A DNA stretch of 28,297 nucleotides from Paecilomyces variotii (lineage: Eukaryota), in the NCBI GenBank assembly GCA_004022145.1, contig RCNU01000015.1. The stretch is one strand, 5' to 3'. Each line of letters starts with the position of its first letter. The stretch's first letter is position 1. Below are positions 1 through 28,297 of this stretch, piece by piece. Below the pieces are notes generated by a model. The model was not told the origin of the DNA, did no database searches, and saw nothing but the letters and a program-made list of their open reading frames with translations. A program made the translations under genes and the position numbers.

Positions 1-19
1 AAGCGAACAGTGCAGAGTA

Positions 20-150: not shown

Positions 151-276
151 GCGCATGATTTCGAGATCCCCGAGATAGCACGAGAGCAAAAGTCTTCACG
201 GTCAACTTAACCAGTATCTCCATCAGAGGAACGTTAGTCCATTTTATCTCTCTAGCAGATTCAATAATTTTCCAAA

Positions 277-2395: not shown

Positions 2396-2521
2396 GATGG
2401 CGACAGTTGCCAAATCTGGCTCTGAAAGTAATAATAAAGAGAGAGAAAGAGGAACCCAACGAAGCGCGATCCGTAAGTTGGGTATGTTTGTGCCCCTCCG
2501 CTGGTGGTGATGATTTCTCGC

Positions 2522-2575
2522 CTGGAATTTTCAGTGAGATGGTCTGTGCGTTAAGCTTATCTTAGCGCTATCGCT
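2522..2575 (-). promoter_or_regulatory. Possible RRPE-like (TGAAAATTCC) and GATAAG/GCGATAG motifs upstream of NOB1
   Basis: The minus strand reads ...gcgatagcgctaagataagc...ctgaaaattccagg, ~130-180 nt upstream of the NOB1 ATG. Function is inferred from the gene class only. Confidence 0.3.
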
Positions 2576-6559: not shown

Positions 6560-8349
6560 AGTAGTGGCACTACCAAGACCAATCCGATAGAAAGGTCATG
6601 TTTAACATGGCTATGTCCTAATTACCCTATCTTTCCTTCTCCTTTTGGACATTCGGTTGCCTTGACCTGGCTATATATTCTTCATTTTCTCAATCTGTAC
6701 TATTGTACCGACTTTTATTTTTCTTCTTCTATGGTCTGATATTCCCCAAATTTTGTGTCTAGCGCACAATGAAAGATGGAAGGAAGAGTCTTGTGTACTT
6801 TTGTTGTCCATGTCTATCCACTCTCAGGATTCGCTCGGGTTAATAATCATGTAAATCATCACTAATACATGTGAACAAAGCAAAAAAAAAGGGGGGGGGG
6901 ATAATAAGAAAAAGGCAGGAATGAAAAGTGGTATAACGCAAGAGCAACAATACCCTCGAATATACGCACTGCGAATCCAATAGACCGGCCTAGCATGCAA
7001 ACGCAGGTTCTCCCTGATTTTCAAGAACTGGTTCTTTTCTCTCTCCAATCTGAATGTTTATCCTCTTGCTTAGTTAATTTACCTTTAAGCCCTGTGTATG
7101 CATATACGTCGCGTGCGCGTTGCGCGTTTAGGGTTATTTATTGTTGGTCAGTTTTTAACTAGGCCCGGCGGCCGAAATACCCCTTACATATATAGTCCTC
7201 CTTCTTTCCCTCCCATTTCACCTTTCTTTCTACGTCTCATATTCATTATTTGTCAACTTAATATCTCTGTTACTCATCAAAGTATCAGTGAGTCCGATTT
7301 TGATTTTCCAACCAGCCATGTAAAAACAATATCTATCCTATCTGGTGGCATTTTTGGCCTTTATAGCTTTGATTTGCCTGTTATGTGTGTGCAATGAACA
7401 GTTTACATTTCATGAATGGGTCTTTCGTCCAGCAAGTAATATAAGGTAATTCTTCGCAATATATGGTAGACACTGTTCGTTCTTCAGTCTGTTATTATCA
7501 TAATGCGACGACCGCAGCCTTGTCTGATCCGAATCCCGACTCTCGAGCCTAACCGCCCGCGAGTATACATATCAACCCATCAACGAAGGCATTTGCTTTT
7601 ATACCTGTATCAGGATAGACCATCGATATTCGCTTGCTTGCATGCCATGGGAGGGTCAGCATCTACCCATCCTGTGGACCTCCTTATCCACGAGAAGTTA
7701 TAACTATAGTTACCCCATCCTAAATTTCTAATAGACCAAAGGTCCAATAAATAAATAAACCACCATAGATCTCGTATATCCATCCCATGTCTAGTTCTCG
7801 AAACTCCGCGGAGTTCTGTAATCGCTAGCTCTTGAAATTGGGTCGTTTGAGTGAAATTAGGTAATGTGGATGTAGTGGTAAATCGTTTTTCTTAGACTAT
7901 ATAGATGAGCAGGAGGAGTACTTAATGATAATACTTTATCCTTTATCCCGCGGTTATCGACTGCGCGATGATAGGTTACGGTTGGACTTTTTCGATGATG
8001 TATTTATTCGGTTTACTCTGGTTGTTATGGCTTCCGTCCAATATATATATTTTTTCTACGTGACGGCTTGTTCCACTTACGCGTAAATGCATGTACACGT
8101 ACTACGCCTATCCAGTCTACTTTATCTAATGAATCAAATAGATTTTGAGTCCAAATATATTCATAATGTTCATATACTTTTAAACTGAAAACACTAATGC
8201 AACCGGGATGCTATTACAACGCGCCTAGATCACATGCGATGCAAAACTAACAAGGGAAAACGAACGCTCTTCCCCGGATATCAAACGTAAAGAATGCTGA
8301 AAGGCCAAGCAGAATGAAACTCTTGCGAGTCTACGTCTCGTCTACGAAT

Positions 8350-9918
8350 CTAAAACCCCTGAAACTCCGCGTCCACTTCTTCGTAGTAATCGAAGAAGCC
8401 CTTGAAGATCTTGACGCCAAGACCAGGATCGAGACTCCCGGTCGTGGCGCGGATGCTGTGCATGCTCAACTGCGGAATACCCGCGTCGATGGCTCTCATG
8501 CCAATGCGAGCACTGGTCATGGGTCCGATAGTGCCGCCAGAACGAGAGTCGTTGCGAATCTGGAAGACTTGCAGGGTGGAACCGCACTTGTCGGCAACGC
8601 GCTTGAGGATGGCGGAGCTGACGCTGTCGGTCGTCATGTGGCCGTTGGGATCGGCGCTCACTGCAACACCAACGTTGAGTCTGGGAGAGTGGTTCTCGAG
8701 ATAGACATTGAGGAAGTTGGGGTTGACGGCGTGGATGACGTCTGAGGAGACCAGGAAGCTGTTGGCAACAGTCTGGGAGAGTAGATTGGGTCCATAGGTG
8801 TTCGCAGGAGCAAAAGCTTCCGCAATACGCTCGATCACACTGGACATAAAGTTGGAGCGTGCACCTTGACGGAGAAGAGATCCAACCTCCTCGTCATCGA
8901 ACATGCCGACCATCTTCACAATTCCCGGGGAACTCTCATCGGGAGAAGCGAGCAGGGCCTCCTGCGCAGCGTAGCAGCAGAGCTTGTCATCGATCCTGCC
9001 AGCGAAAATGAGATCCTTCTCCAGTCCACCGAGCTGCGCCGGTTGGCTGTCAAACAGCTCAAGCTCCCAGTTGACAATGCTGGTATAGTCTGTGATACCT
9101 AGCTCTTTGGAGATGACCTTGACCAGCTTCTCAGGCTGCGTCGCGGCAAAGGTACCGGACGGGATATCGCTTCGCGTTTCGGCATTGGATTCACCAAAGA
9201 TGTCCGAGTTGTCCACTCCAATTATGGGCACCATCTGCGTCTCCTGGTTGAATGGCCCTTGCGAGGGAGCACCAAAGTGTGGTGCGAGGGTTGGGATCCT
9301 TGCAATGGGCCAGTCCAACTTGACCAGCTTGGTCTCGACCTTGTCTGTGTTCGGATCGCGTACCAGGACTCGTCCACCCAGCGACAGGTCACGATCCCAC
9401 CAGGTGGAGTTGAGCGCACCCGCATAGGGGGCCACGCCCAACTGACGGAAGCCAGCCTTGTTGGGCAGCGTAGGGATAGGCTTCAGCTTGGCGGTAAGCG
9501 CATCAATGTGGCCGGCGACGATACCGATACCATTTCCGCTCTTATAGTCCTTCCCGACAGCGAAAGCGATCAGGGCACTTCCATTGCGGGTAGTGTAGTA
9601 CTTTCCACCACGCTTCAGTTCCGATGTCCAGACATCACGCTCGGAGAGACGCTTGTAGCCATGCTCTTCTAGTTGCTTGGAGAAGTGCTCGACGGCATGG
9701 AAGATGGTGGGGTTCGAGGACATAAACTCGCAGAACGGTTTTGAGTAGGCATCAGGAGAGACGGTGTCCGTCGCAGCACGAGGCTGTGACGGTCTGGGTG
9801 GCAGTACCTGCGAAGATTGTACGGAGACAGGGATGTATCGAGCCTGGGACAACTGGTCACTGTCAAGACGCAGTGTTGAGACGGACGCCTGCAGATCAGC
9901 AACTCTCTTCTTGGTCAT
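8350..9918 (-). CDS. Peptidase M18 family aspartyl/vacuolar aminopeptidase (Lap4/Ape1-like), 522 aa, intronless
   Basis: M18 motifs: PTIFHAV, GHIDA, TWWDRDL, IPTLAPH, GRIDDKLCC, FDDEEVGS, SSDVIHAVNPN, SGGTIGP, PQLSMHSIR. The N-terminal extension resembles that of the Ape1/Lap4 subgroup (inference). Confidence 0.95.
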   Translation of the reverse strand: MTKKRVADLQASVSTLRLDSDQLSQARYIPVSVQSSQVLPPRPSQPRAATDTVSPDAYSKPFCEFMSSNPTIFHAVEHFSKQLEEHGYKRLSERDVWTSELKRGGKYYTTRNGSALIAFAVGKDYKSGNGIGIVAGHIDALTAKLKPIPTLPNKAGFRQLGVAPYAGALNSTWWDRDLSLGGRVLVRDPNTDKVETKLVKLDWPIARIPTLAPHFGAPSQGPFNQETQMVPIIGVDNSDIFGESNAETRSDIPSGTFAATQPEKLVKVISKELGITDYTSIVNWELELFDSQPAQLGGLEKDLIFAGRIDDKLCCYAAQEALLASPDESSPGIVKMVGMFDDEEVGSLLRQGARSNFMSSVIERIAEAFAPANTYGPNLLSQTVANSFLVSSDVIHAVNPNFLNVYLENHSPRLNVGVAVSADPNGHMTTDSVSSAILKRVADKCGSTLQVFQIRNDSRSGGTIGPMTSARIGMRAIDAGIPQLSMHSIRATTGSLDPGLGVKIFKGFFDYYEEVDAEFQGF

Positions 9919-11122
9919 GGCTGTATTAGAGAATGTATTCGGAAGTCAGAAAGGACAGGATGTAAGACACAGAGTACCAGAGGAGGAATGAGGGGAAACG
10001 AACGAGCAGAAGAGAGTGAGGATGTGTTGAGATGAGCTGAGTCCGTTGCTAAGCTCGGGCAGCGTCGGCGTTCCTGGCCGGAATGTCCCTAGTTCCGTTT
10101 TAGTCGGACATCGAAGTCCAATTGTCGTTTCCAGAACAAGACACATCTCGAGCACGGTTCACCGTCTAATTATCTCTCTGTTTACCTAGTTAGCACATAC
10201 TCACAATGGGTTTAACTACTGGATTCCAAACACAATAATTGCCTGGGAGAACATCGTGTATCCAAAACAGGCTGGAAGGAAACTTATGTGGACCACCTGA
10301 TTGCGCGGCATACCCTGTTGCTCCAAGAGATTGCCAGTAAATCTCAGGGACCACAATCCTGAAGTTCAATAGTTTATCTTATAGACGCACTCTTCACAAT
10401 TTTCTGGACGCGATCTGTCATCTCCACAGCCACATGGTGAAGATATCCGTGCTTTTCCCGCCAGAGTGGTGCTGGTCTCCGCCGTCCGGAATGTTCGAAG
10501 GACGATTGGGATAGACATCGTCATCACGATGTGCCACATGTCTCACGTGGGAATGTGCCGCAAATTAACCACGAGCCGTCACTGTAAATTGACAGCGGGG
10601 AATATAATTACATTGTCTCACAGAAGAATCCTTGAGACCCTGATCTGGCTGAGACCCCTGCCATTGTTTGTGGCCGGAATAGTCCAGTCTGCAGTGCCGG
10701 GTATGCTGTATACCTCCAGGATATACAATATGCCAATCCAGGAAAAACACGGCCATTCAAGACATTCTAGATGGCATGTTCATAAACATGTATTTGTTTT
10801 TTGTTTTTCTTGACATCGATCCCTCAGATTCAAGAGCCAGCCGGATCGCATAGGGGTAGAAGCAAGGAGGCAGATTGACTCTAGCGGTGATCAGCATCCC
10901 AAACAAAACTTTCTATGATATAGCCTAAAAATCCAGAATCTATGGTAATAAAACAGAAAGCATTGCCAACAGCACAGCGGATCAAGCTGTCGAAGCAAAT
11001 AGAAGCGAAATGTGACAAAGGCAAGACTAGGTATTCTATCTCCAATACCAAGACAGCCAAAAAAGATAAAAACTATGTCCAATGAGAACCTAAACCGTAC
11101 CGCTCTCTCCTACTCATACCTT

Positions 11123-12574
11123 TCAAGCAGTTTTCTGAGTATTGCTAGAGCCGACGACAGCGTTCCAGTTGACCTTACCGTCGGCGCAGTCATCTGTGAT
11201 AGCGGGTCCGGTGGCAGATTTGACCGGCTTGCCGTTGCGGATAATAGCCAATTTCACAGCGCCAGTCTGGTTGTTCATCGGGATGGAAAAGTGGTTGAGT
11301 CCAACAGTGTTGGCACGGAATGTGCTCACGCTACCGTTGCCGATTTGAGCAGTGACGACACTGGGCTTCTGGACTAGGACTGTAAAGAAAACCTTGTCTT
11401 GGGAGACAATGCCAGGGGGCAATGTCGGCTGGCCTTGGGCAGGGTTGTTACCGGTCGTGCCTCCAGTGCTGCCGGCGGTGCTAGGATTCGGTCGATACCA
11501 GTAAGTTATCTCGTCTTCTGCAGTGTGGTTGCTCCGGTAGAAAGTGGAGTTCCCGTGCGGAGTATGGACTGTGGTATTTCCAGTCTTGTAGGCATCGATG
11601 TAGTATGGAAGCAGCGTTCTCCAGCCGTCATGGGGGTTCTTTGAGACGTAGTCAGACGCACCCTCTGGAATTCCAGATTCGTGGATAGGGCCAATATAGT
11701 GGGATTCTCCGTAATCATTCCAGGTAATAATCTAGATTGAAATTAGCAATCAACAACCGAGAAGGTGCTCAGAACAAAGAGACCCACCTCAACGATGGCC
11801 GGTCGAAGCTCGATGGCCTGAGCCCAGCGATCATGCCACAGGGAATCACCTCGCCACAGCCAGTTCTTGTTCCACTGGGGTAGGTTGGTGTAGAACCATG
11901 GGGAAACAGGCATCATGTATGGTTTTCCAGTGATGGCGCTCATGAACGCTCTGTCAGGGGCATCCGTCATGTCTTGGGTACCCTCTGGCCAAGCGTCCCA
12001 GCTGGCAAAGCCGTCGATCACGCCGAGAACAGAGGCAAGGCCGGTGACTCCTAAACTGGTCCAGGTCGGCATGACGAAACTGTCTGTAGCGGCTTTGATA
12101 CCAGGCCAGTCACCAACATTGCCGGTACCTTCGAACGTGGTGACCAGGGGCCTTCCTTTGTAGTAAAACTGAGCGGGCTTGTCCTTGTAGGTGTTGATTT
12201 TTGTGATCACATCACTGGCGGCCCAGGGACCACCAGATTCGTAATCAAAAGAGAGAAACATCGAGAAATTGCCAACAGCCTCAGCAGCGTCATATGCTTT
12301 CTGAAGGACGGAATCAGTGTACGAATCTTGCGGAGCAATATTCATCACAAATCCGTCGATGTGAGCGTCCTTGGCCGCGGTGATGTCTGACACCCAGTCA
12401 TCTGATGACATGCCTGCGGCATTTCCCACCTACCGCAAGTTAGTAACACAGATTCACAAGATCTAGATATCCAGGAAGACTTACGATGAAATGTGCGAAC
12501 ACATATTTTGGTTCGGAAGACGCTATCACGGAGGTGACTGCAGCAGCCAAAGAAAGTAAATATTTGAGATACAT
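11123..12574 (-). CDS. Secreted glycoside hydrolase family 71 alpha-1,3-glucanase (mutanase), ~446 aa; exons 12574-12485, 12429-11788, 11731-11123
   Basis: Signal peptide MYLKYLLSLAAAVTSVIAS, followed by the GH71 motifs VFAHFI|VGN, AHIDGF, SFDY, PLVTTFEG, WDAWP, PYMMPVSPWFYTNLP..KNW.WRGD.LW..RW, IVE|IITWNDYGESHYIGP, PHDGWR and NWNAVVG. Two phase-0 GT..AG introns. Confidence 0.95.
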
Positions 12575-14573
12575 ATTGTCTGCCTCGATGTGATCGCAGT
12601 ACGACGAACAGAAGGCACGGAAAATGCCTTTATGCGCGCGAATTGAGCAAGATAAATCAATGAAGGTACTGTTTTGGTGGGGCAATGTTGCGGGGGAAGT
12701 ATAAAGGACAGGAAGTTTTGGCGGATCTAGGCCTCAGAGTGAACAATGTGACTGTGGATTCTGTCTTGCAGAAGGAATGTGTACGCCGTCGACTCAATCG
12801 ACGCCGCGAGTAAATGGTGTATCGGCTCTTAGGGTAAATTTTGTAGCTACAGAGCTCCGCTCCGTCCCTGAACTCGTTGGCCAAAAAGAGCGTCTTGCCG
12901 GAAGAACTGGACGACAAAATCAAGTCACAGTGTGACGAAAAGAAAGGACGGTCGAGCTTGCTCGACCTGAGAAGTGTATAGTCCGAAGACAAGTAAAAAA
13001 ACAGAGGCCTTCGCTAACGAGGGGAGGGAAAAAGAAGAGGGGAACTCGAGGCAGTTAATAAAGGACCACCCACCAGCCGATTAAACGACTTCATGGCCGT
13101 GGCTGGGATGAAACTAAGATAGCCAAAGGGGGCCAAATGAGCAGATGCCATGAACGTGCGGCAAAAGAAGAGTGTTTTAGCCGCAGGATGATCACTTGGT
13201 AGGGCAAGATCATAGCGCCGTTCGGGTTCTTCCAGGATAAGAAATAAAGGGACCAGGAACCAAACAACAATCGGATCAATCATAGCGACGAGAGGCATCT
13301 AAGGAAACATAGTGGGCCAGGAACGGAGATGCATGAAACAAACCTTGGTCGGATTGCTGCTGTTTCCCCTTGCTATGGGCGCGACGGTGTAGACGGTTGA
13401 ACAGCTTCATGGTGGCACCTAATCACCGAGTGATACGGCTTCCAACGGTGGATGTGTGGAATCGGAGATCCGAGTGGATCAGACGCCCTGATCAGACCAG
13501 GATATGACTGTCAACCGTAGTCGACAATATAATTATAATGTTAGGGTCCCTACTGAGTATTCTGTCCGGGAGAACGAGAGCGATCGGTAAAGGAACGAAG
13601 TTGACGTGGGGTAGGTAATCATGAATGGTCTGATCAGCGATGTGGGCGCAAGGGAATTTGATCGACCAGCATCTGAAACAAGACGTCTGCTTATCTATCG
13701 CTTCAATCCGCCAGTCTGTAACTTAGCGTTAGTAGTGTCGTAGTTTATCCCACATTTGGGAATTGGGACGAACGATGCTTGATCTCTCGAATGACCTGCA
13801 GATTATCGCTGTGCCGCCAGGTTCTGTCCTCGAGTCGGTATTTCTCTATCCTGAGGATAGAATATAGGTAGATAGTCCCAGCAGTGATTCTAACGCAGCA
13901 GACAGAGGAAATATGAGCCGTCGAGGGATATCGGAATCTCGGTGAGTGCTCTCATCTCATCTCGTCTCTCTCTCATCGGCGATGTTCCCAGGTATCCGGA
14001 TGTGCACGAACCGCCCAATGATCTCGCGTCACGAAGCGCCCATCGTCAACAACTGAAACACGCCAATCGAGAGGTTATGCAGCCACATTGCATCCCCCTC
14101 AACCCAGAGATCCAGCTGTTCCTTTTTGTCTCTAGACGGCTTCGTCGACGACGATCATTAACTTCGACCAGTATCGCTTCTTAACGGGTTAAGTCGAGGC
14201 TAGTTAAAGCGCACAGTTGCTACTCAATATCCACGAGCCTAATGGAATCGCGTCGGTTTTCCGATTGACTCTCACCATCTGCGCTTGTATCTTGCCGGTG
14301 CCGAAAAAGTAGCCTCATAGAGGGACCGGGATCCAGTCCTCTGAGCGCTTATTGATTGCGTCCGGTGATTCTATCTCTACCAGGCCTGCTAGCTGCATAT
14401 CAGAGTCGGTGTTTTAATACTTGCGTAGCGTGATTCTTGGTGAGATGAACAGCAGGGGAAGAGGTGTGTATGACAACCAGTCAAGCTCTCACACAGCCAG
14501 ATAGAAGACGCCATGGCAGCACTGATGTATCTGATATCCAATCACTCAAGTAATACAACAGCATCCGACTTTG

Positions 14574-14590
14574 AAAAAAAAAAAAAAAAA
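14574..14590 (+). repeat. Poly(A) homopolymer (~17 nt)
   Basis: Run of A visible directly in intergenic DNA. Confidence 0.9.
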
Positions 14591-15640
14591 GCAACGGTAG
14601 ATATGCAAAACGCCCCTGGCTGGCCAGTTCTGTGCTTATCCGCCTCAAACAATGCGACCTTAGGACCAGTTGGTTCCCATCTAGCGGCTGGACAGTCAGG
14701 AAACTAGACCACAGGGATTTAGTAGATTCTACCGGTCAAGCTGAGCACCAGTATTTGCCAACTCGGAGGGAAGCAACTGTAAGCATTGGCATGATCTTTG
14801 AGCGGACGAAGCTGTGTGCTTGGACAGCTAATATAGGACAGCAAGGCACTGCCGCACGCGAAATTCCTATATACTTCGACGTCGCAGAAGCATAGTAAGT
14901 GGCTGATAAAGAATGCGGAGAGAATGCTGTTTTCTAGGCGTCCTATCTGTACTTGCAGGTACGATGTCGCTCCATTATGGCGGTAAGAAGCAGCGTCACA
15001 TCGTGGACGAGTTTTGGACCATTTTCTGATGATATGTCTCTGAGCTGCAAAAAGCTAAGTTTATTGGATAAATTAAGGGCATGGTATAACCTCGATTGAG
15101 TGGGAATCATGGAGGCTCATCGGCACCCGTTGACATTTCGACATATCTAGTGCATAGATGGAGGTTCACCTTACTTATCGCCAATGATAGCTAGGTAGGT
15201 AACTAGCCATTTCATCCATGCCAAATAAACCAAAAGTCACCTTGCGTTCCAGCTGCTATAACCACAGGATTGTGCCGCGAGATCTTCAATGACATGGTTT
15301 GTGTCTATGTAATTAGCATCCCTGCTTCGTCATTATTCTCCGCAGAAACTCTGCGGCTCATCATGTTGCAGCATCGCACTAGTTCAGTCACAGACCCCAG
15401 CACTTCATGGAGCTGTAATGTCGCTGTCTGCTATGTCTACAATCAATCTGGTTACACAAGCTGACTTGACATAGTTATGTCACCTCAATTCAGCCTTGTG
15501 AATGGCTTGTTCTACATCTTCCTGACTCGATAAGCTAGGAACGTTGGCTGCGGGCGCGACAAACTGCTTCATAAAGCCACTATGAACCTTCCGATTAGAC
15601 AGGTCCGGACGTTGATCGTCAAGAACCTCGGTTATATGGG

Positions 15641-15706
15641 TCGCGAGGTCGCGAGGTGGCGTCTCGCGAGGTCGCGAGGTTTTTGTTACCAGTAGGTTAC
15701 TGGTAA
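15641..15706. repeat. Compartment-boundary motif: two 17-bp direct repeats TCGCGAGGTCGCGAGGT (15641-15657, 15664-15680) followed by a 9-bp-stem hairpin TTACCAGTA-ggt-TACTGGTAA (15686-15706)
   Basis: Read directly from the sequence, exactly at the GC-to-AT transition. Confidence 0.85.
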
Positions 15707-15822
15707 ATTATTATTTTATATTAAAATTATACTAATATATACTAATAGAGAATAAAATCTAAAATTTTTAAATCTCGCGGGGTAGTAAGATTGTAATTTT
15801 TATATTTTATACTAAATATTAC

Positions 15823-17009
15823 TATCACAGTGCCAGCATAGGGGATTATGTAAGGAGTTATATAATCTCGCGAAAATATTTTCAGTATATAGCTTAATCT
15901 GAATTCAAGCTCCTTAAGCTATATCTTATTTATTAAGCCTGCCTATAATAGCTTATTTTAGTCTGAATTAGCTAGATAGAGATCTTATAGCTAGTTCTAA
16001 TATTAATTATCTTATTCTATTTATTCTAACCTGCTTCTAGAGCCTATATCTTAATATTATATAGTTTCTATCTAAGAGTTAATATTATTAATAATACCTG
16101 CCCTAATTCTCTTATTCCTGCTAATTGCCCTAAATAAATTTATTAAATATATTACTGCTAGCTATAGGCTAGAATAATATAAATATTATTATCTAGCATA
16201 TAAATATATTAATAAAGCTAAAACTGCTGTAAATAAAATAAATTATTAGGCTAAAATATATTTTTAAAAGTTTTAGCAAGAATTTACTGCTATTTAATAG
16301 AGACTTAAATAAAAAATTATTAAACTTAAGGCTATTTAGTAATATTAAAAGATTTAGTTTTAAGAAAAAGAATAATAGTATATTTAAGCTATTCTTAAGA
16401 GGGATTAGGCCTATTATATAATTATATCTATTATAAATATATCTCTATTTATATTTAAATTTAAGCTTAATATTAAGAGGCCTATAGCTATTTTAATAGA
16501 AATATTTAAAATACTTATTATTATATTTTCCTTTACCCTTAGACTTTTAAAGAGATTCTTTAATTTAAATAAGTTTAAAGGCAATTAAAAGGATCTTTAA
16601 TACTTTATAGCCTAGATCTAAGGGAAGATAATAATTAATTAAAACAGATTCCTAACCTCCTAGAGCTATATAGCTTATATAATTAATTATTTAAAGGGTG
16701 CGCTTTATGCCTAAATATTGCTATATATTAGAGATAGAACCTATATTTTTAATAATTATTAAAAGATTTTAAATATTTTAGAGTATATATTTAATAACTT
16801 TAATTATATAAATAATATATATAATAAATTATTTAACCTTTATTAGATTAATAAAAAATTTAGAATTTTTTTTTATTAAATTTTAGCGCCTAGCACTAAA
16901 AAGAGAAATATTTAAAAGAATATTATTTATTTTACTAAAGCAAATTATTAGCTAAAAATTTTAAAAAATATTATTATATAGTTAGCCCTTAAATTATAAA
17001 TATTATTAA
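15823..17009 (+). mobile_element. Ty3/Gypsy LTR retrotransposon copy 1, truncated: 5' LTR (15823-16056, ~234 bp) plus first ~950 bp of the internal/gag region
   Basis: LTR starts tatcacagtgccagc (RIP of TGTCACAG) and ends cttaata. Region 16057-17009 is colinear with 20083-~21042 of copy 2. Homology stops at ...aaatattattaa|gggcatatac. Confidence 0.88.
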
Positions 17010-19827
17010 GGGCATATACCTCGGCTTAGCTAGGGCTAAGCTCAGCTTACCCTAGGAGCTTAGCCTACCCTAGAGCTTATTCTTAGTTAGGTTAAGCTTA
17101 ACCTATCTTATATACAGATTAAGTATAAGCTTAGCATAAACTAATTATATAATTAATATAAGATTAACTTATTTAAAGATTAATAATAATATTTATATAA
17201 TAAAACTCTTTAGAATTTATAATATATATATATATAATAGCTAATATAAAGCTAAGTACTATTACTTTTTCTCTAAATACTTAAAAATAGCTAAGAATTA
17301 AGTAATTATAATTAATAGCTAAATTAATAGTATTTTTAATTAATAGCTATATAATATTCTTGTCTAAATATATTAATATAATTCTTATAGAGACTTAGCA
17401 GATATTAAGTATATATTTAATATTTATTATATTTAGACTAAATGCTAATTTATTATAGAGCAAACTTATATAAAACTATAACTTTTATAAAATATACTTA
17501 AACTAGTTTAAGAATATAATAAGTAATTAAAGCAATATCTATTCTTATATAAAAAGTGAAAATAAAAAATTTAAGATATATCTTAAATTTTCTCTTTATA
17601 TAGAACTTAATTAGGTATATTTTTTTTATATAAGTTTTAGCAGAGTATATGCTAAGTATATCTAGAAGGTTATTTTTTTTATAGGTATTATTATTAGCTG
17701 TAATAATATCTTTAAGATTATAATTAATAATATTTAGGATAAATTATCTATTTCTAAATATTTAATAACTTATTTTAGTAGTATTTTATATTTTATTTAT
17801 TAAAAAAATTTTTTGCCTTATAACTATTCTAGTATAAATATTTATTAAATATTTTAATAACTTTTATTAAAGGTATATCTATATCTTATCTTAAGCAGAT
17901 ATTTAATATATTATAAGTATATATTAAGTATAACTTAGATTTAGTTTAGGCTCTATACTTAAGGTAATTATAAGATTTTATTTCTTCTACTTCTTTAAAA
18001 GGATAAAAAGGATAAAATTTAAAGTAAGATATATTATTAGGCATATAAATATAGCGGCATTAAATATTATAAGTATATATTAAAGTATATACTTAAATAA
18101 TATTATAAATATAGCTATATTAAACTAAATATCTTTAAAATACTTTATAAAGAAATAGGCTATATATCTAATACTACTTCTGCTAATAAATTTCTTAAAA
18201 AAGAAATTAAAAATTAATATAATAGATTTTTTTATTTTTAGAATTAATAATTAGCAAAATATTATTTTTATCTAAAAAGTAAAATATAAGTATACTTAAA
18301 TTAAACTCCGGTAATCTTTAAATAGTATAAAGTAAGTTTAACTCTATATTTAATTTTAGCATATACTAAATATATCTTTAGCTACTAGTTATCTTTATTA
18401 ATTGCCTATTAGCAAATAATTTTAAATTATAGTATATTATATAAGCTATCTCTATATATATAGCTTAAATTTATATACTTTATCTATATACTTTAATAGC
18501 TTATAGGATATATAATACTAATATTCCTATTTAATTTATTTATACTTATATTAATTATACTACTTTAAGGCATATAACTTATAGTAGGTATTTGCTTTAT
18601 ATATATTAGGTATATATTAACTATAAGTCTAGGATTTAACTACTCTTAAGGTATATTTAAAGTCCTATATAAAGAATATAATGCTTTAATTAATATTTTT
18701 ATTCTTTATAATTAGGATTATTTTCCTTTTATCTTTTTTATTTATTAAAAAGATTATATATATTTTCTTCTATTACTAACTAAGTTAAGTTAAGATTTTA
18801 TTTAAGAACTTATAGATTTAATTAATTAAAGAGATATTCTTACTATAACTATATATATATTATATATACTTTAAGCCTGCATTCTATATATGCTGACTAG
18901 ATATTTATAGATAAATTCTTAATATCTCCTAAAGTATATATATTTAAATAAAAATATTAAGGTTAAGCTCTAAATTTAATTAGAGCTTCTTTAAATATTA
19001 AGGATAAAATTACTTATTTAATTTAAAAATAAAAACTTCTATAATACTTATTTAGTTTAAATATTACTAGTTAGAATCTATTCTTACTATATATTTTATA
19101 TATACTAATACTATATAAAGGTTATATAAGAGTATAAATTTAACTAATATAAAAAAAGTAATAAATAATAGATTTACGCAGTTAATATTAGTAAAACTAA
19201 AGAATATATTATTATTTATTATATAAATACTTAAGTAAAAGTATTTATAAAAGCTAAATATCTTAAAATAAATTTAGCTTATAAGATAATACTTAGAAAT
19301 ATAAATATCTTTTTAATTTTAAGCTAGAATTCCGAAGCTAAATATATATTTAACTTCTTCTTATTATATATTTAGTATATACTAACTTTATATTAGGGAT
19401 TAATATCTATTACTATGCTTTTATCTCTCTATAAACTTATTATATATATTTTTAAATATTTAAATTATTATTTTAAATATTATTATAAGCTATATATTAA
19501 TATATTTAATAAGCATATATTTTAAATAGAGAAGAGATATAGACTATTATTATAGATATATATAAGAAATAAATACCTAGTTAGTATTATCTTAATAGAT
19601 ATAGAGTATATGCTAAGTATATTTAGGCTTTAGTAACTACTTATATTCTATTTATCCTTCCCTTAATTAGTAAAAATATCTTAAGCATATATTTATCTTC
19701 TGCTAAATATATATTAAATATAATTTCTATAAGAAGTTTAAAAGATCTTATTCTCTTATCTATTAACTAAAACATTTATAGGATTTATATTCTTACTAAG
19801 AAATCTTTTAAACTATATATTAATAGG

Positions 19828-22800
19828 TATTATAGTGCCAGCACAGGAGATAGAGATTTACTAGCTAATGCTTATATAAGGTATTATATAATTTTGCGAA
19901 GATATCTTTAGCATATAGCTTAATCTAAATTTAAGCTCTTTAAGCTATATCTTATTTACTAAGCCTGCTTATAATAGCTTATTTTAGTTTAAATTAGCTA
20001 AATAAAGATCCTATAGCTAGTCTTAATATTAACTTCTTTATTTTATTTATTTTAACCTGCTTCCTGAGCCTATATCTTAATATTATATAGCTTTTATCTA
20101 GGAGTTAATACTATTAATAATGCCTATCTTAATTCCCCTATTCTTGCTAATAACTTTAGAAGAGTTTATTAAGCATATTACTATTAGCTATAGGCTAAAA
20201 TAGTATAATTATTATTGTTTAGTATATAAATATATTGCTAGAGTTAAATTATTTATAAATAAAACTAGCTAATATATTAAATAAATTAAAGCAAGATTTT
20301 AAGAACTTTAGCAGGAGTTTACAGCTATATAATAGAGATTTAAATAAAAAAATATTAATCTTAAGACTATCTAGTAGTATTAGAAAATATAGCTTAATAA
20401 AAAGAAATAGCAATATATTTAGGCTATTATTAAGAGGGATTAAACTTATTATATAGCTACTCTTATTATAAATATATTTATATTTATATTTAAATCTAAA
20501 TCTAATATTAAAAGGCCTATAGCTGCTTTAATAAGAATATTTAAAATATCTATTACTATATCTTCTTTTGCCCCCAGACTTTTAAAGAAACTTCTTAATC
20601 TTAATAAGTTTAAAAGTAACTAAAAGAACCTTTAGTGCTTTATAGCTTAGATTTAAGAGAAGATAATAATTAACTAAGACTAATTCTTAACCCCCTAGAG
20701 CTATATAGCTTATATAATTAATTACTTAAAGAATATGCCTTATATTTAAATATTACTATATATTAAAGATAAAACCTATATTCTTAATAATTATTAAAAG
20801 ATTCTAAATATTTTAAAGTATATATTTAATAATCCTAATTATATAAATAATATATATAATAAATTATTTAACCTCTATTAGACTAATAAAGAATTTAAAA
20901 TCTTTTTTATTAAGTTCTAGTGCCTAGTATTAGAAAGAGAAATATTTAAAAAAATATTATTTATCCTGCTAGAGTAAGTTATTAACTAAAAATTTTAAAA
21001 AATATTATTATATAGCTAGCCCCCAAGTTATAAATATTATTAATTTGCCAAATTCTTATAAGACTTTAAAAACTATTATTATTAATATATTATAAACTAG
21101 CTCTTTATTATAAAAACTTATACTGCTATTTTAAAATCTATTTAATATATTTAGTCTTCTTTACTTATTCTAAGTCTTACCCTAGCTATAAGATATAATA
21201 ACTAGCCTTAGAAAAGCCTTATATAAAAAAGTAAATTAGCCCTAATATAGCTATATAATTTAATAGACTTAAATATTTTTAAATGCTTAAGCGGGAGAGA
21301 ATATAGCTTATTATATTATAAAATTAGCGCCTACTTTTAATATAGCTCTTTAAAATATTATATTAAAGATTATCTATATCTAGATAATTATTAGAAGATT
21401 TAAACTATAGCTATATATAAACCCTACTTTTAAACTCTCTAAATAATTTAGTTCCTAGATTTATATAATCTATCTCTTAGCTAATCTTTAATAAAAAGAG
21501 TAAGTCTAAAGTAAATTATAGCTAAGCTTAAGAATTATATATTATTTAAATCTCCGCTGCTATTATTTATAGAATTAACCTTAAGAAATACTTATAATAA
21601 TTAAAATTAATAATATTGTCTATAATATTAGAGAAGAAGAAGAAGAAAATCTATTTATTAACTTATATCTTACTTAATATTAGAGCTAAAAAAATAAAGA
21701 TTTATAGATTAAGGATAGGCTAAAAATTAGAAATTAAAGCTTATCCCCTTAAAAAGCCTAATTATCTTATATATATTTAATAGAAGAAAACTAGAAGATA
21801 AGAAGATTATATATTATATCTAGATAAATATAAGAATTAAAGATTATTTTAAGAAAGATATTAAGTTTTATATTATTTAACTAGCGTATTATTCTATTAT
21901 TTTAAGATTTCTCTAATTAAAGCACTATAACTTATACTTATAATTTACTATTTATAATATTATTTTTAATAATAATTATTATTAAAAGAATTATAATATA
22001 TTCTTAAAGCTAATTAAAATATCTGCCTTATATAATATTTTTCTAAAGGCTTTATTTTAATATTTATCTCTAAGACTTAGAGGATTAGAAGAAAGAAATA
22101 TAGCCTTTATTTCTTTAACTGCTTATTCTGCCTATATTTAAAAAAATACTTAAATATTTATAATTATCTTAAAGGACCTAGATATTACTCTAAGGATTAA
22201 ATAAATTTAAAAAAAAGACTCTGCCTGTTTATTACTTAAAAAGTTTAAAGATTATATTAATATCTTTTCTCCTAAAGAGGCTAAATATTTATTATTATAT
22301 TATTTTTATAACTATAATATTAAGTTATTAGAGGAGAAGTTATTTCCCTTTAAATCTCTATATATTATATCTTAAAATAAATTAAAGGTTTTAAAGAAAT
22401 AGATTAAAAAAAATCTAAGAAAAAGATTTATCTGCTTAAGCTTATTATCTGTTATATTCTTAATTCTGTTTATTAAAAAGCCTAATAGAGGAATATAGAT
22501 CTATATAGATTATTAAGCCCTAAATATAATAATTATTAAAGACTAATATCTCTTACCTTTAATTAAAGAGACTTTAAATAACTTAAAAGAAATAAAGTAC
22601 TTTATAAAGATTAATATTATTTCTATATTTAATAATCTTTATATTAAGAAAAAATAAGAATACCTAATTGCCTTCTATATTTAACTTAGCCTATTTAAAT
22701 TATTAATAATATTATTTAATTTAATAAAAATACTAGCAATATTTTAATAGTTTATTAATAATACTCTATAAGATTATTTTAATATCTTTTATACTATATA

Positions 22801-25782
22801 CCTTAATAATATCTTAGTTTATAATATAACTTATTCTAAATATATTTAATATATTTATACTATCTTATAGAAGCTATATAAAATAGGCCTATATATAAAG
22901 ATCTAGAAATATAAGTTTATTATCTCTAAGACTAAGTTTTTAGGTATTATTATTAGCTAAGACTGTATTAAGATAAATCTAGATAAAATAAAAATAATTG
23001 CTAAATAAAAGACCCCGATTTATATAATTAATATATAAGTCTTTATTAAGTTTAGTAACTTTTACTATTAGTTTATTTATAACTTTTCTAAGATAATTAT
23101 ACTATTTATAAGCTTAATTTAGAAGGAAGTTTCTTTTAATTAAATACCTATCTATTAGTTTAGTTTTAAAGCCCTAAAAGAAATATTTATTTAAACCCTA
23201 ATCTTAAAGCTATTTAACTAGACCTATAAGATTATAGTTAAAATTAATTTATTTAATTATATATTAGCTAGAATTATATCTTAATATAATAATAAAAGAA
23301 TCTTATATCTTATTATATTTTTTTTAAAAAAACTCTTTACTATAGAGTATAACTATAAGATTTATAATAAAGAACTACTAGCAATTATTTACTGCTTTAA
23401 AAAATAGCGCCTTAAATTTAAAGATATACTATTACTAATTAAAGTTATTATAGACTATTATAATTTAAAATATTTTATATTAATTAAGCTGCTGAACTAA
23501 TAATAGGCCTATTAATTTAAGTTTTTATCTTAGTTTAACTTCTAAATTATATATTAACCTAAAAAATAAAGAGTAAAGTCTAATATTCTAACTAGAAGGT
23601 TAGAGAATTTTCTTAAAAAAAAGGATAAATAGTTATAGTATTAGAGCTAAATAGTCTTAAAAAAGAGAATCTTAATTTATAGATTTAGAAATCCTTAAAA
23701 TTAAAAGCTATTATTAGAAGTTAAATAGTAAGATATATTTACTTTACCAATTTAATAGCTTAAAAAGCTAGAAATCTTGCTAAATCTATAAGAATACTTA
23801 CTTAACTTATTCTAAGAAATTAATCTATTTAGCCTAGAGAACTTATTTAATCTATTTTACTACCTAACTAGCTTATTAAGATTATTTAATTTATTAAGGA
23901 GATAATTTAGTCTATTAAAGAGATTATTTAGCCTATTAAAAAAATAGCCTAGCCTATTAAATAAAACTAGTTAAATTCCCCTGCTATACCTAATAAATTA
24001 AAATATCTGCTTAGTATTAAAGACCTATTAAATATAGCTTATTTATTTAATAATTTAATATAGTCTATTTTATAAGCTTTAGATTATAAAACTAACTGCT
24101 ATTTTAAGATTATATTAGTTAATTACTAATAAAGAAAAAGATATTTATATTATAAAAACTATTTATATATTTCTAATTATAATAAGCTAAGAGCTTATTT
24201 ATTATAAGAATACTATAATAAATATATATCTAGATACTCTAAAAAATATAAGCTTTATAACTTAATCTTATAGAAGTACTATTAGCTAAATATATACTAA
24301 TATATAGATTATTAGACCTAGAATTACTATACTTACTATTATATTATACTCTTAAATAAAGGCTATTAAAAAGTTTTATACTAGCTCTTTATCTCTAAAT
24401 ACTCTTAGTAAAATATTTTAATAGATTTTATTATTAGACTTATACTTTACTAAAGTTATAATATTATATTAATTATTATAGACTAATTTATAAAGATAAA
24501 ATATTTTATTCCTTATTAGGCTATTTATAATATTAAAGGAGTAATATAATTATATATCTATTATATATAGAAGCTTTATAGGCTATTAAAGACTATAGTA
24601 TTTAACTAAGACTCTTAATTTATTATTACTTTTTAGAAATACCTAATTTAATACCTAGATATTATAAACCTATTATCTATTACCTATTATTCTAAAACTA
24701 ATAATTAAACTAAAAGGATAAATGCTGTCCTAGAATAATATTTATATACTTATATTAGCTATTTATAAGATAATTAGGTTAACTAGCTATTTTTAACTAA
24801 GTTTATATTAAACTCTTATTATTCTAAGACTATTAAAATATTACCTTTTTTTACTAATTATAGGTTCTATTTATATATAGGATTTAAACCTATTTAGCCT
24901 ATAAACTAGCCTGTTATTAAAGATATTAAAGCCTTTATTAAAAAGATATAAGATATTATAAATTATATCTATACTTAAATTTATATTACTTAAGCTTATT
25001 ATAAAAAATAAATTAATTATTACTAAACTCTAGCTTACTACTATTATATAGAATAGTTTATTTAGTTAAATACCTAGAATATTTATATTTAGCGCCTCTA
25101 GAAGAAACTTAATTAGAAAAATCTTAGCCTATTCTATATTACTAAAGTTATTAGCCTATATATTTATTAGCTTAATCTATTTATTTTAATATATATTTAT
25201 CCTATATTTAATATTAGCCTGCTTTACTCTATTACTAAAAATTTTATACTTAAATAAAGATAACCTTTACTACTGCCTATTAAAGTTAATAATCTTAAAG
25301 AATAAGTTATTAAAGATATCTTAGACTTTTAATAAGAATGCTATAAATATAAAGGCTTTTAACTATAGTATATTATTAAATAAATAAATTATAATAATTT
25401 AATTAAAGAGCCTATATATTATCTATAATATATTTAAAAAATTATTACTAACTTCTATTACTATTATCTAAATAAACTAAAGCTAAAGAATAGTCTTAAT
25501 AAAGCTTAACTTTAAGAAGAGAAGTATTATTATAGTGCTAGTATAGGAGATAGAGATTTATTAGCTAATATTTATATAAGATATTATATAATCTTATAAA
25601 GATATCTTTAATATATAGCTTAATTTAAATTTAAGCTTTTTAAGCTATATTTTATTTATTAAGCCTGCCTATAATAGCCTATTTTAGTCTAAATTAGCTA
25701 AATAGAGATTTTATAGTTAGTCCTAGTATTAACTTCCTTATTCTATTTGTTCTAATTTATTTCTTAAGCCTATACCTTAATA
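19828..25782 (+). mobile_element. Full-length RIP-inactivated Ty3/Gypsy chromovirus copy 2 (5955 bp); LTRs 19828-20082 and 25528-25782; TSD ATAGG (19823-27) / ATAGA (25783-87)
   Basis: Two 255-bp direct LTRs, a purine tract aagaagagaag just before the 3' LTR, and a 5-bp TSD differing by one G>A. De-RIP pol motifs occur in RT-RH-IN-chromo order: FVKKP.GG.R.C.DY.ALN..T.KD.YPLP.I (~22460-22570), Y-L-D-D as tac ctt aat aat (22799-22810), ETD.SDY..AG (~23235), MDFI.GL (~24420), IVSDRD.QF (~24595), YHPETDGQTER.NA.LEQYL (~24680-24745), chromodomain-like V.DILD...Y.VKW.GY (~25300-25410). Confidence 0.93.
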
Positions 25783-26432
25783 ATAGAGTAAGAAATATCT
25801 AGATATTAAAAAATAGCTTTAAAATAAAATAAAACTATAGATTCTTACTGTATTATTATAGGAAATATTAAAAATCTCTTTTAAATAGTAGAGTTATACT
25901 TAAAAGTATATTAGATTATCTGAAAATAGTTACTTCTAAAATAATTATAATATAAAGAGAAACCTATCTTTACTAAGGGCTATTTAATAGTATATTTATA
26001 CTTAGTATATACTTAGTATTTATTTAGCATAGATTAAATACTAATAAGGCTAATTTATATTTAGTCTATAATAATATATAGAAAATATTATTAAATAATA
26101 AGAGCTTTTTAATTATAGTATTAATAATATATAGTAAAACTATAGTAATACTATATAGATCTCCTAATAAATATAGAGAAATAATAAGATAAAAGTTTAA
26201 TATGCCTTTAAATATATATTAAATATATCTTTTAAATTAATAGAATTAAAGAGCTATTAATTATTAAATAAATTAATTTTATTTACTATTTAATCCTAAT
26301 AATCCTTATAATATACCTTTAAATAATAATAATAATTAATCTTTTAATAAAGATACTAATTTTAAGGTTATTTTAATATCTTTATTTAAACCTTTTATTA
26401 AATATATACTGGCTAGAAATAAAATATCTATA

Positions 26433-27693
26433 GAGCATATACTAAGCAGAGATTAAAGAAGAGGTTAATCTAGAGATTTTAGTTATTATTAAAGCTAGGT
26501 TTAATCTAGAATTAAGTAGATTAAGCTAAGCTTTAAAGAATTAGATTTAAATTATTATTTTTAACGCAGATTAAATATAGAGTATATATTAAATAAAGAT
26601 TAAGAAAGAGATTAATTTAGAGGTTCTAGTTATTATTAGAGCTAGGTTTAATTTAAGACTAAGCAGACTAAGCTAAGCTCTAAAAAATTAGACTTAGATT
26701 ATTATTCTTAATATAGATTAAGTATAAAATATATATTAAATAGAGATTAAGAAAGAGATTAATTTAAAGGTTTTAATTATTATTAGAGCTAAGTTTAATC
26801 TAAAATTAAATAGATTAAGCTAAGCTCTAAAGAATTAGACTTAGATTATTATTCTTAATATAGATTAAATATAGAGTATATATTAAATAAAGATTAAGAA
26901 AAGGGTTAACTTAAAGGTTTTAATTATTATTAAAGCTAGATTTAATCTAAGACTAAATAAACTAAGCTAAGCTTTAAAGAATTAAACTTAGATTATTATT
27001 TTTAATATAGATTAAGTATAGAGTATATACTAAATAGAAATTAAGAAAGAGGTTAATTTAAAGATTTTAGTTATTATTAAAGCTAGATTTAATTTAAGAC
27101 TAAGTAGATTAAGTAAATTAAGCTAAGCTCTAAAGAATTAGACTTAGATTATTATTCTTAATATAGATTAAGTATAGAGTATATATTAAATAGAGATTAA
27201 GAAAGGGGTTAATTTAGAGATTTTAGTTATTATTAGAGCTAAGTTTAATCTAAGACTAAGTAAATTAAGCTAAGCTCTAAAAAATTAGACTTAGATTATT
27301 ATTCTTAATATAGATTAAATATAAAATATATACTAAATAGAGATTAAAGAAGAGGTTAATTTAAAGATTCTAATTATTATTAAAGTTAAGTTTAATCTAA
27401 GATTAAATAGACTAAGCTAAGCTCTAAAAAATTAGACTTAGATTATTATTCTTAATATAGATTAAGTATAGAGTATATATTAAATAGAGATTAAGGAAGA
27501 GATTAACTTAAAGATTCTAGTTATTATTAGAGCTAGGTTTAATCTAAAATTAAATAAACTAAGCTAAGCTCTAAAGAATTAAACTCAGATTATATTTTTT
27601 AATGCAGATTAAGTAAAGAGTATATATTAAATAGAGGTTAAGAAAGAGGTAGATTTAGAGGTTCTAGTTATATTTAAGGCTAGATTTAATTTA
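26433..27693 (+). repeat. Tandem array of 147-bp units (8 full plus ~half; the unit starting at 27021 is 156 bp owing to a 9-bp duplication)
   Basis: The landmark gattaagaaag/gattaaagaag recurs at 26451, 26598, 26745, 26892, 27039, 27195, 27342, 27489 and 27636. Confidence 0.95.
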
Positions 27694-28101
27694 ATACTAT
27701 CTTAATATTTAAAAGGGTTTAAACTTCTTTATTAGATTTAAATAGCTTTACTAGTTTTAATCTAGAGTATATATTAATTTTATATTTAATATATATTATC
27801 TAGAAGTTAAGTATAGATTTTAAATAAAATAGAGCTTATATATATTATAATAAAGGATTCTTATTAGAAGAAATAGCAGAGATTAATTTTATTATTTAAT
27901 TAAGAGAAATAATAGAATAAAAGCAATAAGAATTTAAGTAAGAAAGAGAAAGATTATTATAGCAGTTTATATAATAAATATATATATCTATATAGCTATA
28001 GTTATATAGTAAATATATATATATATTTTCTTTTCCTCTATAATAAGAATAAATAAAAAAATAAAGAATATTATATTATAATTATTTAAAGATATAGAAA
28101 A

Positions 28102-28197
28102 ATAATCTTTAAGTATAAGAACTTAGCATTAAACTAAAATTTAGCATTAATAATCTTTAAGTATAAAAGCTTAGTATTAAACTAAAGTTTAATATTA
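28102..28197 (+). repeat. Two 48-bp subterminal direct repeats at the right end of the MULE-like element
   Basis: ataatctttaagtataagaacttagcattaaactaaaatttagcatta (28102-28149) versus ataatctttaagtataaaagcttagtattaaactaaagtttaatatta (28150-28197). Confidence 0.85.
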
Positions 28198-28297
28198 AGT
28201 ATATGCTCGGGGGAGAGCTGGGCTTAAATATCTATATATTTAAGGCTTTTAAAACTTATCCTTAAAAGAAGAGATTATAACTTATAGATATAAACTT

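Follow-up and report, generated by a model that had tools for sequence, protein, structure and literature searches.

We report that positions 17010–28208 of a 28,297-nucleotide stretch of Paecilomyces variotii DNA (contig RCNU01000015.1; the whole stretch is called the window hereafter) very probably represent one dead copy of a cut-and-paste Mutator-like element (MULE), lying on the + strand, inactivated by repeat-induced point mutation (RIP), and later split by a second Gypsy insertion. This DNA preserves the relic of a transposase gene with its exon–intron structure; a Gypsy retrotransposon is nested in it, a repeat array follows it, and a related family found elsewhere is mobile. Within a known superfamily, it constitutes a new and divergent lineage with unusually many introns; it is not an element of a new kind. 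Membership in the Mutator/MULE superfamily is well supported, not proven, by lines of evidence that are weak but concordant.

The window consists of a genic part (1–15700, ~50% GC) and an AT-rich block (15–21% GC), which extends from about 15700–16000 to the end and in which the candidate element has a GC content of ~17%. The scan of the window for open reading frames (ORFs) returned none of 80 aa or more beyond position 14895. The RIP indices of 17010–19827 are 1.32 (TpA/ApT) and 0.26 ((CpA + TpG)/(ApC + GpT)), versus 0.72 and 1.23 in the genic part, and RIP is as heavy in the candidate element as in the neighboring Gypsy copies. An initial annotation, made from the letters alone, had described the stretch as devoid of ORFs, AT-rich, and erased by RIP, and the ORF scan, the GC content (0.15–0.21), and the RIP indices bear this out. 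In P. variotii, RIP was shown experimentally and AT-rich regions of ~20% GC were attributed to the RIP of retrotransposons (PMC6300479).

A transposase gene read through the RIP damage

The decisive query was the unchanged +3 translation of 17012–19827, with stops written as X, which was compared by phmmer with 1.84 billion representative proteins. Seven matches were obtained at E ≤ 1e-3, covering query residues 148–786, and the best of them, P0003, reached E 8.1e-34 with 48% identity. We also wrote a protein-to-DNA aligner in which DNA gaps are free and codon scores are log-odds that model C>T and G>A decay. With it, eight reference proteins gave 81.9–228.6 bits on the + strand, against 17–39 bits for the controls (minus strand, Gypsy DNA, and Markov-simulated DNA). 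Moreover, undoing RIP-type changes alone recovers the reference residue in 123 of the 124 codons for P0004 and at 217 of 219 for P0003, compared with 58/106 and 67/134, respectively, on the minus strand. As read today, 49 (P0004) and 111 (P0003) codons are identical, and about one codon in ten has become a stop. The RIP-only reachability and the aligner scores thus uphold the earlier proposal that reversing RIP joins the exons into a protein.

Among the relatives, P0008 (A. stella-maris) and P0010 (A. granulosus) are annotated, uncharacterized Aspergillus proteins, and P0011 (931 aa; 4,119-nt contig) and P0014 (969 aa; 3,603-nt contig) are full-length proteins from short assembled contigs. The contigs of P0003, P0004, P0005, P0011, and P0014 lack the introns that are present in the window and in the metagenome copies described below; to judge by this comparison, they may be assembled transcripts, which would demonstrate splicing and expression, or copies without introns. 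The fragments P0003 and P0004, which are neighbors in the protein, are each listed on a contig of 1,273 nt that may be one and the same. Where they meet, P0008 reads on and the window carries an in-frame stop; some residue changes in P0003 itself are RIP-like.

Methods that make no use of this route returned little. Pfam scanning of the stop-masked translations (whole frames plus 96 tiles of ~150 aa, E ≤ 10) gave nothing for the candidate; such scanning has low power on RIP-damaged DNA, since the Gypsy control yielded RT_RNaseH_2 alone. A word-indexed protein search with the +3 frame at E ≤ 10 gave no match, the candidates being swamped by low-complexity proteins, and the three-base periodicity of the surviving G/C is weak, even in Gypsy. 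A RIP-aware codon model recognized the Gypsy pol control (maximal segment 42.7 vs. 13.7 for the 95% level of the null), but the best single segment of the candidate is marginal and lies on the minus strand (15.9 vs. 11.4). Over 17300–19500, one reading phase stands out, with a total of −13.5 against −42.5 (standard deviation 8.3) for the simulated best of six, a value reached in 0 of 300 simulations; the best phase switches every 250–400 nt. Hence, a protein-coding history can be recovered from ~17% GC DNA that standard tools leave unannotated, and an exhaustive search with a stop-masked translation, followed by RIP-aware protein-to-DNA alignment, is a sufficient route to it.

Exons, introns, and catalytic residues

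The transposase gene, on the + strand, comprises ten exons and nine introns of 47–91 nt, to which one or two putative introns may be added (Table 1). The exon blocks agree across independent reference proteins. Introns were recognized by homology, as DNA segments that are missing from colinear proteins, that change the phase, and whose first two letters are GT (or AT, after RIP) and last two AG (or AA), and their borders were refined by allowing RIP-altered splice sites. Most of them carry a CTAAC-like site 10–20 nt upstream of the acceptor. The position of intron 7 is also marked in P0009 and P0013, derived from the European Nucleotide Archive (ENA), where 15 extra residues are read through exactly there. 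Putative intron 10 is placed by position and pattern, not by a colinear protein. Beyond it, the C-terminal match is weak (21.6 and 21.3 bits vs. null maxima of 18.0 and 17.5), and the ORF was tentatively extended to ~26400, where the array begins. A strict intron regular expression finds two introns on the + strand and one on the minus strand, against ~0.4 under the null; it is misleading here because RIP altered several splice sites. About ten introns had been predicted, and nine are found by homology, one of them weakly, with a tenth fitting the pattern.

Table 1. Features of the candidate element and of the Gypsy copies next to and inside it (positions in the window)
Positions	Strand	Feature	Basis
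15830–17009	+	Truncated Gypsy-type copy A (long terminal repeat (LTR) and start of interior)	Direct repeats; RIP-tolerant alignment
17010–17021	+	Left terminal 12-mer GGGCATATACCT, RIP-compatible inverted partner of 28197–28208	
17022–17286	+	5' subterminal region and leader, GCTTAGC/GCTAAGC repeats	Tandem Repeats Finder (TRF), 17039–17079
17287–17367	+	Exon 1; start codon now ATA (from ATG) at 17287	P0004 residues 1–27
17368–17458	+	Intron 1, 91 nt, AT..AG, donor G changed by RIP	P0004 colinear across
17459–17614	+	Exon 2	P0004
17615–17665	+	Intron 2, 51 nt, GT..AG; contains GTATATGC then TAAG	Homology
17666–17872	+	Exon 3	P0004, P0003
17873–17938	+	Intron 3, 66 nt, GT..AG	Homology
17939–18331	+	Exon 4, Cys/His-rich N-terminal region	P0003 residues 21–151, ungapped
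18332–18381	+	Intron 4, 50 nt, GTAAGT..ACTAAA..TAG	Homology
18382–18583	+	Exon 5	P0003 residues 152–219
18584–18632	+	Intron 5, 49 nt, GT..AG; the least supported (score 3.4)	Phase change between blocks
18633–18854	+	Exon 6; end of zinc-finger-like region, H-x-H-PPPP at 18755–18784	P0005, P0010, P0011, P0014, P0015
18855–18910	+	Intron 6, 56 nt, AT..AG, GCTGAC branch-like site	Homology
18911–19069	+	Exon 7	Homology
19070–19118	+	Intron 7, 49 nt, GT..AA, acceptor changed by RIP	Homology
19119–19343	+	Exon 8, first catalytic D	Homology
19344–19396	+	Intron 8, 53 nt, AT..AG, ACTAAC branch-like site	Homology
19397–19579	+	Exon 9, second catalytic D	Homology
19580–19626	+	Intron 9, 47 nt, GT..AG; contains GTATATGC then TAAG	Homology
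19627–19827	+	Exon 10, first part, with CxxH	Homology
19828–25787	+	Nested Gypsy-type LTR retrotransposon copy B (19828–25782) and second target-duplication copy	LTR repeats, Pfam
25788–25989	+	Exon 10, second part, with catalytic E	Ungapped P0011 651–735 block across junction
25990–26064	+	Putative intron 10, 75 nt, GTATAT..GCTAAT..TAG	Strict pattern; related-family intron at P0011 743/744
26065–26400	+	C-terminal coding remnant, FNPxNP[YF] as in P0011 and P0014	Weak match
26364–27848	+	Tandem array, 147-bp unit, ~9–10 copies	
27849–28196	+	3' tail, 48-bp repeat x2 at 28101–28198	TRF
28197–28208	+	Right terminal 12-mer AAGTATATGCTC (reverse complement GAGCATATACTT), tentative end	

The four protein motifs pointed out initially lie on the + strand at 18755, 19268, 19552, and 25910, and read today YIYFLLLLTK, INLAYK, IDIYKK*IPS (the asterisk is a stop), and IRLSENSY. 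Their undamaged versions exist in intact relatives: P0005 carries HSHFPPPPSK, IEMDLAFK, and LDMCKKQGPG; P0008 carries HGHPPPPPSR and EIDLSFK; and P0010 carries ISESSH. The first catalytic D (19271–19273) is now AAT, i.e., N; the second (19555–19557, GAT) and the catalytic E (25922–25924, GAA) are kept. Between the second D and the E lies a CxxH motif, which is FCQVH in P0011 and P0014 and FCQVY in P0010. In the window, it reads FC*IY (19698–19712), which is RIP-compatible with FCQVH; its C (19701–19703) is kept and its H (19710–19712) is now Y. The D, D, and E columns, as well as the N-terminal C...C...H-x-H columns, are conserved in our protein alignments A1 and A3, where the CxxH column is also present. 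HxHxPPPP, the two D motifs, CxxH, and E, all foreseen from the damaged letters, are represented among the intact homologues P0005, P0008, P0010, and P0011.

A Gypsy retrotransposon nested in the gene

Exon 10 is interrupted by Gypsy copy B, in which the stop-masked Pfam scan finds RT_RNaseH_2 at E 1.1e-10 (frame 2). A 5-bp duplication borders this copy (ATAGG at 19823–19827 and ATAGA at 25783–25787). When 19827 is joined to 25788, residues 651–735 of P0011 (85 residues) form a single ungapped alignment between 19749 and 25963; the frame thus resumes once the Gypsy and one target-duplication copy are excised, as had been proposed. Moreover, the flanks on the two sides of Gypsy B contain 11 copies of TAAGTATA, which is absent from the + strand of the 7.1 kb of Gypsy. 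The flanks share short motifs that are missing from the Gypsy, and therefore they constitute one entity.

On its left, the element abuts Gypsy copy A, the counterpart of the first 1.2 kb of the complete copy B. In the RIP-tolerant alignment, 16900–17009 matches 20934–21043 and then breaks, the A-to-B homology ending exactly at 17009; the left edge of the element coincides with this break. The alignments did not demonstrate an insertion of the element into Gypsy copy A. Part of the AT-rich block is in this way explained as nested elements, i.e., a Gypsy, then the MULE, and a second Gypsy inside the MULE.

Three side observations concern this block. Near the 3' end of Gypsy B, the RIP-aware codon model detects an antisense coding-like segment (24913–25557, minus strand; 20.1 vs. 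null 95% 13.7), which could be a codon-symmetry artifact or a further retrotransposon gene. At the border between the genic DNA and the AT-rich block, a short GC-rich run (15637–15690) of GGTCGCGAG-type repeats lies directly upstream of the first AT-rich sequence. Finally, a constant share (~0.22) of the words of 17010–19827 is found in many sequencing runs, including food-fermentation and grain metagenomes, which suggests that part of this segment, or a sister copy, is common to another lineage.

A related family is mobile

The relative P0007 derives from a metagenome contig, and scanning that collection gave 150 matching stretches, from which 79 distinct loci (L001–L079) were kept; the related family is thus present at at least 79 loci. 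The unit repeated at locus L004 is sharply delimited, from 8447 to 14531, measures 6,085 bp, and is common to ~70 of the other loci. Its ends, CGGGTCGCAGCTG... and ...CAGCTGTGAGCCC, are inverted, imperfectly, over roughly 13–22 nt, and they are accompanied by inverted subterminal CGTGGTCAC repeats. Of the 79 loci, 38 yielded both ends, and 24 of these 38 have a 9-bp target duplication: the 9-bp flanks are identical in 13 and differ by transitions only in 11, with no match in the remaining 14. The metagenome copies show a RIP-like decay (GC 0.33–0.38), and Pfam found nothing on their exon translations. In L002, L025, and L067, a second copy of the right end is located 70–85 bp beyond the first, which suggests a duplicated or nested terminus.

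The transposase gene of this family contains ~11 introns of 37–66 nt, at P0011 positions 87, 156, 249, 287, 348, 422, 471, 550, 611, 743, and 793. Introns of the window map to P0011 positions 347, 418, 475, 545, and 611 by direct alignment, and introns 2–4 to about 87, 156, and 287 by reading of alignment A1. Judging from these alignments, the intron positions are common to two diverged families, whose proteins are each only ~25–40% identical (local alignments) to common references. The related family is mobile and behaves as a cut-and-paste element, because it occupies at least 79 loci with inverted ends, 9-bp duplications, and introns at matching positions. Single-copy host genes devoid of terminal inverted repeats (TIRs), the contrary outcome envisaged at the outset, are the opposite of what these 79 loci with inverted ends and 9-bp duplications display.

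Ends and 3' array of the window copy

The two terminal 12-mers listed in Table 1 are the sole sites of the window that match the degenerate palindrome with at least three G/C kept. In the 5' subterminal region, 17036–17140 is similar, in direct orientation, to the 147-bp unit repeated in the array (nhmmer with the unit profile, E 0.0077), both being built on GCTTAGC/GCTAAGC. TRF describes the array as a period of 147 with 8.6 copies and 86% matches over 26429–27694, which confirms the long repetitive tail noticed initially. Each unit contains one site derived from the palindromic octamer GCATATGC, discussed below, and one TAAGCTAAGC site. The unit has no coding potential, the nine-copy de-RIP consensus having stops in all six frames.

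Probable assignment to the Mutator superfamily

CxxH (C/DxxH) between the second D and the E is a mark of MULEs, and target duplications of ~9 bp, such as those of the related family, are another. In addition, one source names P0010 "MULE transposase domain-", and the Pfam model MULE (PF10551) matches P0008, the sole match among about ten homologues scanned, at E 0.047 and 14.6 bits versus a cut-off of 27.6. The HMMER check against PF10551 suggested by the initial annotation therefore stays below the threshold; such a match serves for diagnosis and does not define the superfamily biologically. No hAT dimerization domain or other superfamily domain appeared in the Pfam scans of the homologues, nor did the N-terminal zinc-finger-like region, a candidate WRKY/GCM1-type DNA-binding domain, match any Pfam family in those scanned. 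By their ESM (protein language model) features, the catalytic part neighbors MULE clusters (score 0.93), and all ten best family-bearing matches belong to that family or clan. The neighbors of the N-terminal part are GCM (0.93; 12% of members), FLYWCH, FAR1, and DBD_Tnp_Mut; only five of the ten best agree, so that the family is doubtful and this direction is a lead only.

The AlphaFold2 (AF2) model of the catalytic domain (P0011 residues 441–765; predicted local distance difference test (pLDDT) 70.4, predicted template modeling score (pTM) 0.69) shows a core of beta-beta-beta-alpha-beta order, after which comes a block of helices. Its best Foldseek match is the transposase of ISCth4, of the IS256 family (E 9.9e-3, probability 0.77), and the Transib, Hermes, and P-element transposases are also among the top 11. 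With VIA-align, the RNase H-fold cores of HIV integrase and Hermes, aligned with the helical insert skipped, gave Z 5.4 and Z 5.2, respectively (82 residues aligned, root-mean-square deviation (rmsd) 2.7), and ISCth4 gave Z 4.3–4.4 with a longer but poorer alignment (147–151 residues, rmsd 7), such Z values possibly reflecting a common arrangement only. Structure prediction, which had been recommended as a check, gave a model compatible with an RNase H-like core bearing a helical insert; its best matches are DDE transposases and integrase cores, all at E ≥ 9.9e-3 and Z ≤ 5.4. A full-length AF2 model of P0011 was poor (pLDDT 44.6), and its Foldseek list was discarded as meaningless.

Weighing the interpretation

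Several results weigh against a MULE copy bounded as we propose. For the superfamily, neither PF10551 nor PF00872 rises above its cut-off in any homologue, P0003, P0004, P0005, P0007, P0009, P0010, P0011, P0013, P0014, and P0015 being without match, and Pfam MULE was found in no translation of the window. No structural match reached Foldseek E ≤ 1e-3 or Z ≥ 8, and the family profile found two irrelevant matches (E ~1) among PDB sequences. For the boundaries, a general alignment of the two ends as inverted repeats is not above chance: of the very short TIRs described initially, what stands is the RIP-compatible inverted pair of 12 nt. No 9-bp target duplication surrounds this copy (TATTATTAA vs. 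GGGGGAGAG). The 89 nt beyond 28208 matched no assignable sequence and were not shown to continue Gypsy A, whose resumption to the right of 28208 was looked for and was not significant. The left edge is well defined, and the right end, without target duplication, is tentative. The central claim made initially, a MULE-type transposase of D..D..CxxH..E layout with many introns, nevertheless draws support from the intact relatives, the 9-bp duplications, and CxxH, no curated threshold being reached.

Could the gene belong to the host? A host gene domesticated from a MULE transposase, as FAR1 or ZSWIM, might have been damaged by RIP leaking from the neighboring Gypsy copies, and this would suit the missing target duplication, the inverted pair of only 12 nt, the annotation of the two Aspergillus homologues as ordinary single proteins, and the many introns, which are more usual in host genes. 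We consider it very improbable. The RIP equals that of the Gypsy copies in intensity, as would be expected of a sequence that was itself repeated, the octamer architecture of the array is that of the 3' region of a relative residing at at least 79 loci with target duplications, and P0003 and P0004, the fragments closest to it, derive from a second copy that carries fewer mutations. An assignment to a neighboring DDE superfamily (hAT, P, Kolobok, or Transib-like) instead of Mutator is nearly as improbable, if a shade less so. The Z of Hermes, a hAT transposase, slightly exceeds that of ISCth4, Transib, Hermes, and the P element figure in the Foldseek top 11, and the Pfam MULE threshold is not reached. 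The presence of Hermes among the structural matches is, however, expected because the folds are related, and hAT elements make 8-bp target duplications, against 9 bp in the related family. The ESM neighbors of both parts, the sole Pfam and source labels, which are MULE, and the Pfam scans of the homologues, devoid of a hAT dimerization domain, also speak for Mutator.

That the whole reconstruction is an artifact of a permissive de-RIP reading is hardly credible. An AT-only codon can be converted to ~4 amino acids (the mean over all 64 codons is 2.2 reachable residues), so that any motif might be found, the unaided searches were empty, and the strict intron signals were few. The search with the unchanged stop-masked translation (E 8e-34), aligner scores 3–10 times those of the controls, and a reachability of 99% versus ~50% already refute this possibility. 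A RIP-inactivated MULE copy is consequently the interpretation that we retain.

Predicted architecture and the palindromic octamer

The intact element would have begun with a short terminal inverted sequence and a leader of 277 nt, followed by the transposase gene (~840 codons in 11–12 exons), the 147-bp array (1.3–1.5 kb), and a short tail. Its protein would comprise a Cys/His-rich N-terminal DNA-binding region ending in H-x-H-PPPP, then an RNase H-like core (D, D, CxxH, E) with a helical insertion. It probably worked like other MULEs, the transposase binding the ends, cutting, and integrating with a 9-bp duplication, and this very copy would once have transposed.

The octamer GCATATGC is an unexpected trait of this architecture, found in nearly every intron and in the 3' repeat region of both diverged families. 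The de-RIP consensus of the related element contains 28 sites, whereas the Markov null averages 1.09 and never exceeds 5, and 18 of the 28 sites are located in the 3' 2.5 kb, mostly ~90–110 bp apart (coordinates from the copy L021:2507-8591). The 7-nt core [CT]ATATGC is present in 9 of the 11 introns of the related family, with 17.7 per kb in introns versus 2.3 per kb in exons (Fisher p 9e-5). The real metagenome copies contain 1.57 octamers per kb, compared with 0.01 per kb in 157 kb of flanks. In the window, the 5.2 kb belonging to the element hold 28 RIP-degenerate octamers, compared with three in the 7.1 kb of Gypsy and seven in the 15.7-kb genic part. Inside the gene, 11 of 16 degenerate octamers are intronic, introns representing 587 of 2,818 nt, with one in each of ten introns; with one G/C kept, however, a RIP-altered donor GTATAT can mimic the octamer, and with two kept, 6 of 10 are intronic. 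In introns, the octamer adjoins the branch-like site (GCATATGCTAAC-like); the leader, every 147-bp unit, and the two tentative ends contain it as well. A literature search for GCATATGC gave unrelated subjects only among the matches listed.

With this distribution, the octamer of introns and array is a well-defined candidate, open to testing, for a site of transposase binding or splicing control, and it would have been a protein-binding site in the non-coding parts. A broader reading, built on motif positions and in our opinion rather unlikely, is that the transposon family has put a docking site in almost every non-coding stretch, i.e., leader, 1.5–2.5-kb 3' array, and introns. The element's zinc finger or a host factor may then bind DNA or pre-mRNA, coupling the splicing and expression of the transposase to its own level. 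The introns may also descend from copies of the repeat unit of the element, in the manner of introner-type intron gain, which would be compatible with such a coupling.

Comparison with known systems

MULEs are reported as ubiquitous in fungi by a study that assigns them through PF10551 and PF00872 (PMC5751038). The present family stays below threshold with both models, and therefore a survey based on them would probably miss it, as would Pfam-based transposon censuses in general. Our results add a divergent Mutator-type lineage in filamentous fungi, found in Aspergillus, in Paecilomyces variotii, and in a metagenome fungus with at least 79 copies. Moreover, ~11 short introns at the same positions in two families offer a natural system for studying the dependence of mobile elements on host splicing.

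The relatives P0008, P0010, P0011, and P0014 are colinear with the exons of the window and share H-x-H-PPPP, (I/M)DL(S/A)FK, TxDM, FCQV(H/Y), and (S/A)E(S/V)SH, but they are intact and only 24–29% identical to the window as read. With the 6,085-bp element, the window copy has in common a homologous transposase, matching intron positions, a long 3' non-coding region with many GCATATGC, and RIP-like decay. The metagenome element differs by its ends (CGGGTCGCAGCTG..., with CGTGGTCAC subterminal repeats), by being less mutated, and by a 3' region in which TRF gives no clean tandem array. On the bacterial side, IS256 is the counterpart of Mutator, and ISCth4 uses copy-out/paste-in transposition. 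ISCth4 (PDB 6xgw, 6xg8, 6xgx) is the best Foldseek match, with 147–151 residues aligned by VIA-align; however, identity is 10–14%, the scores are weak, and ISCth4 is prokaryotic and intron-free. Compared with established MULEs, such as maize MuDR and the fungal elements Hop of Fusarium oxysporum and Mutyl of Yarrowia lipolytica, the present element resembles them by its predicted DDE core with CxxH, its putative N-terminal Cys/His DNA-binding region, and its candidate terminal inverted sequences, together with the 9-bp duplications of the related family. It departs from them by its ~11 short introns at positions common to two diverged families, by its very short ends, and by the octamer GCATATGC, which fills the introns and the long 3' repeat region.

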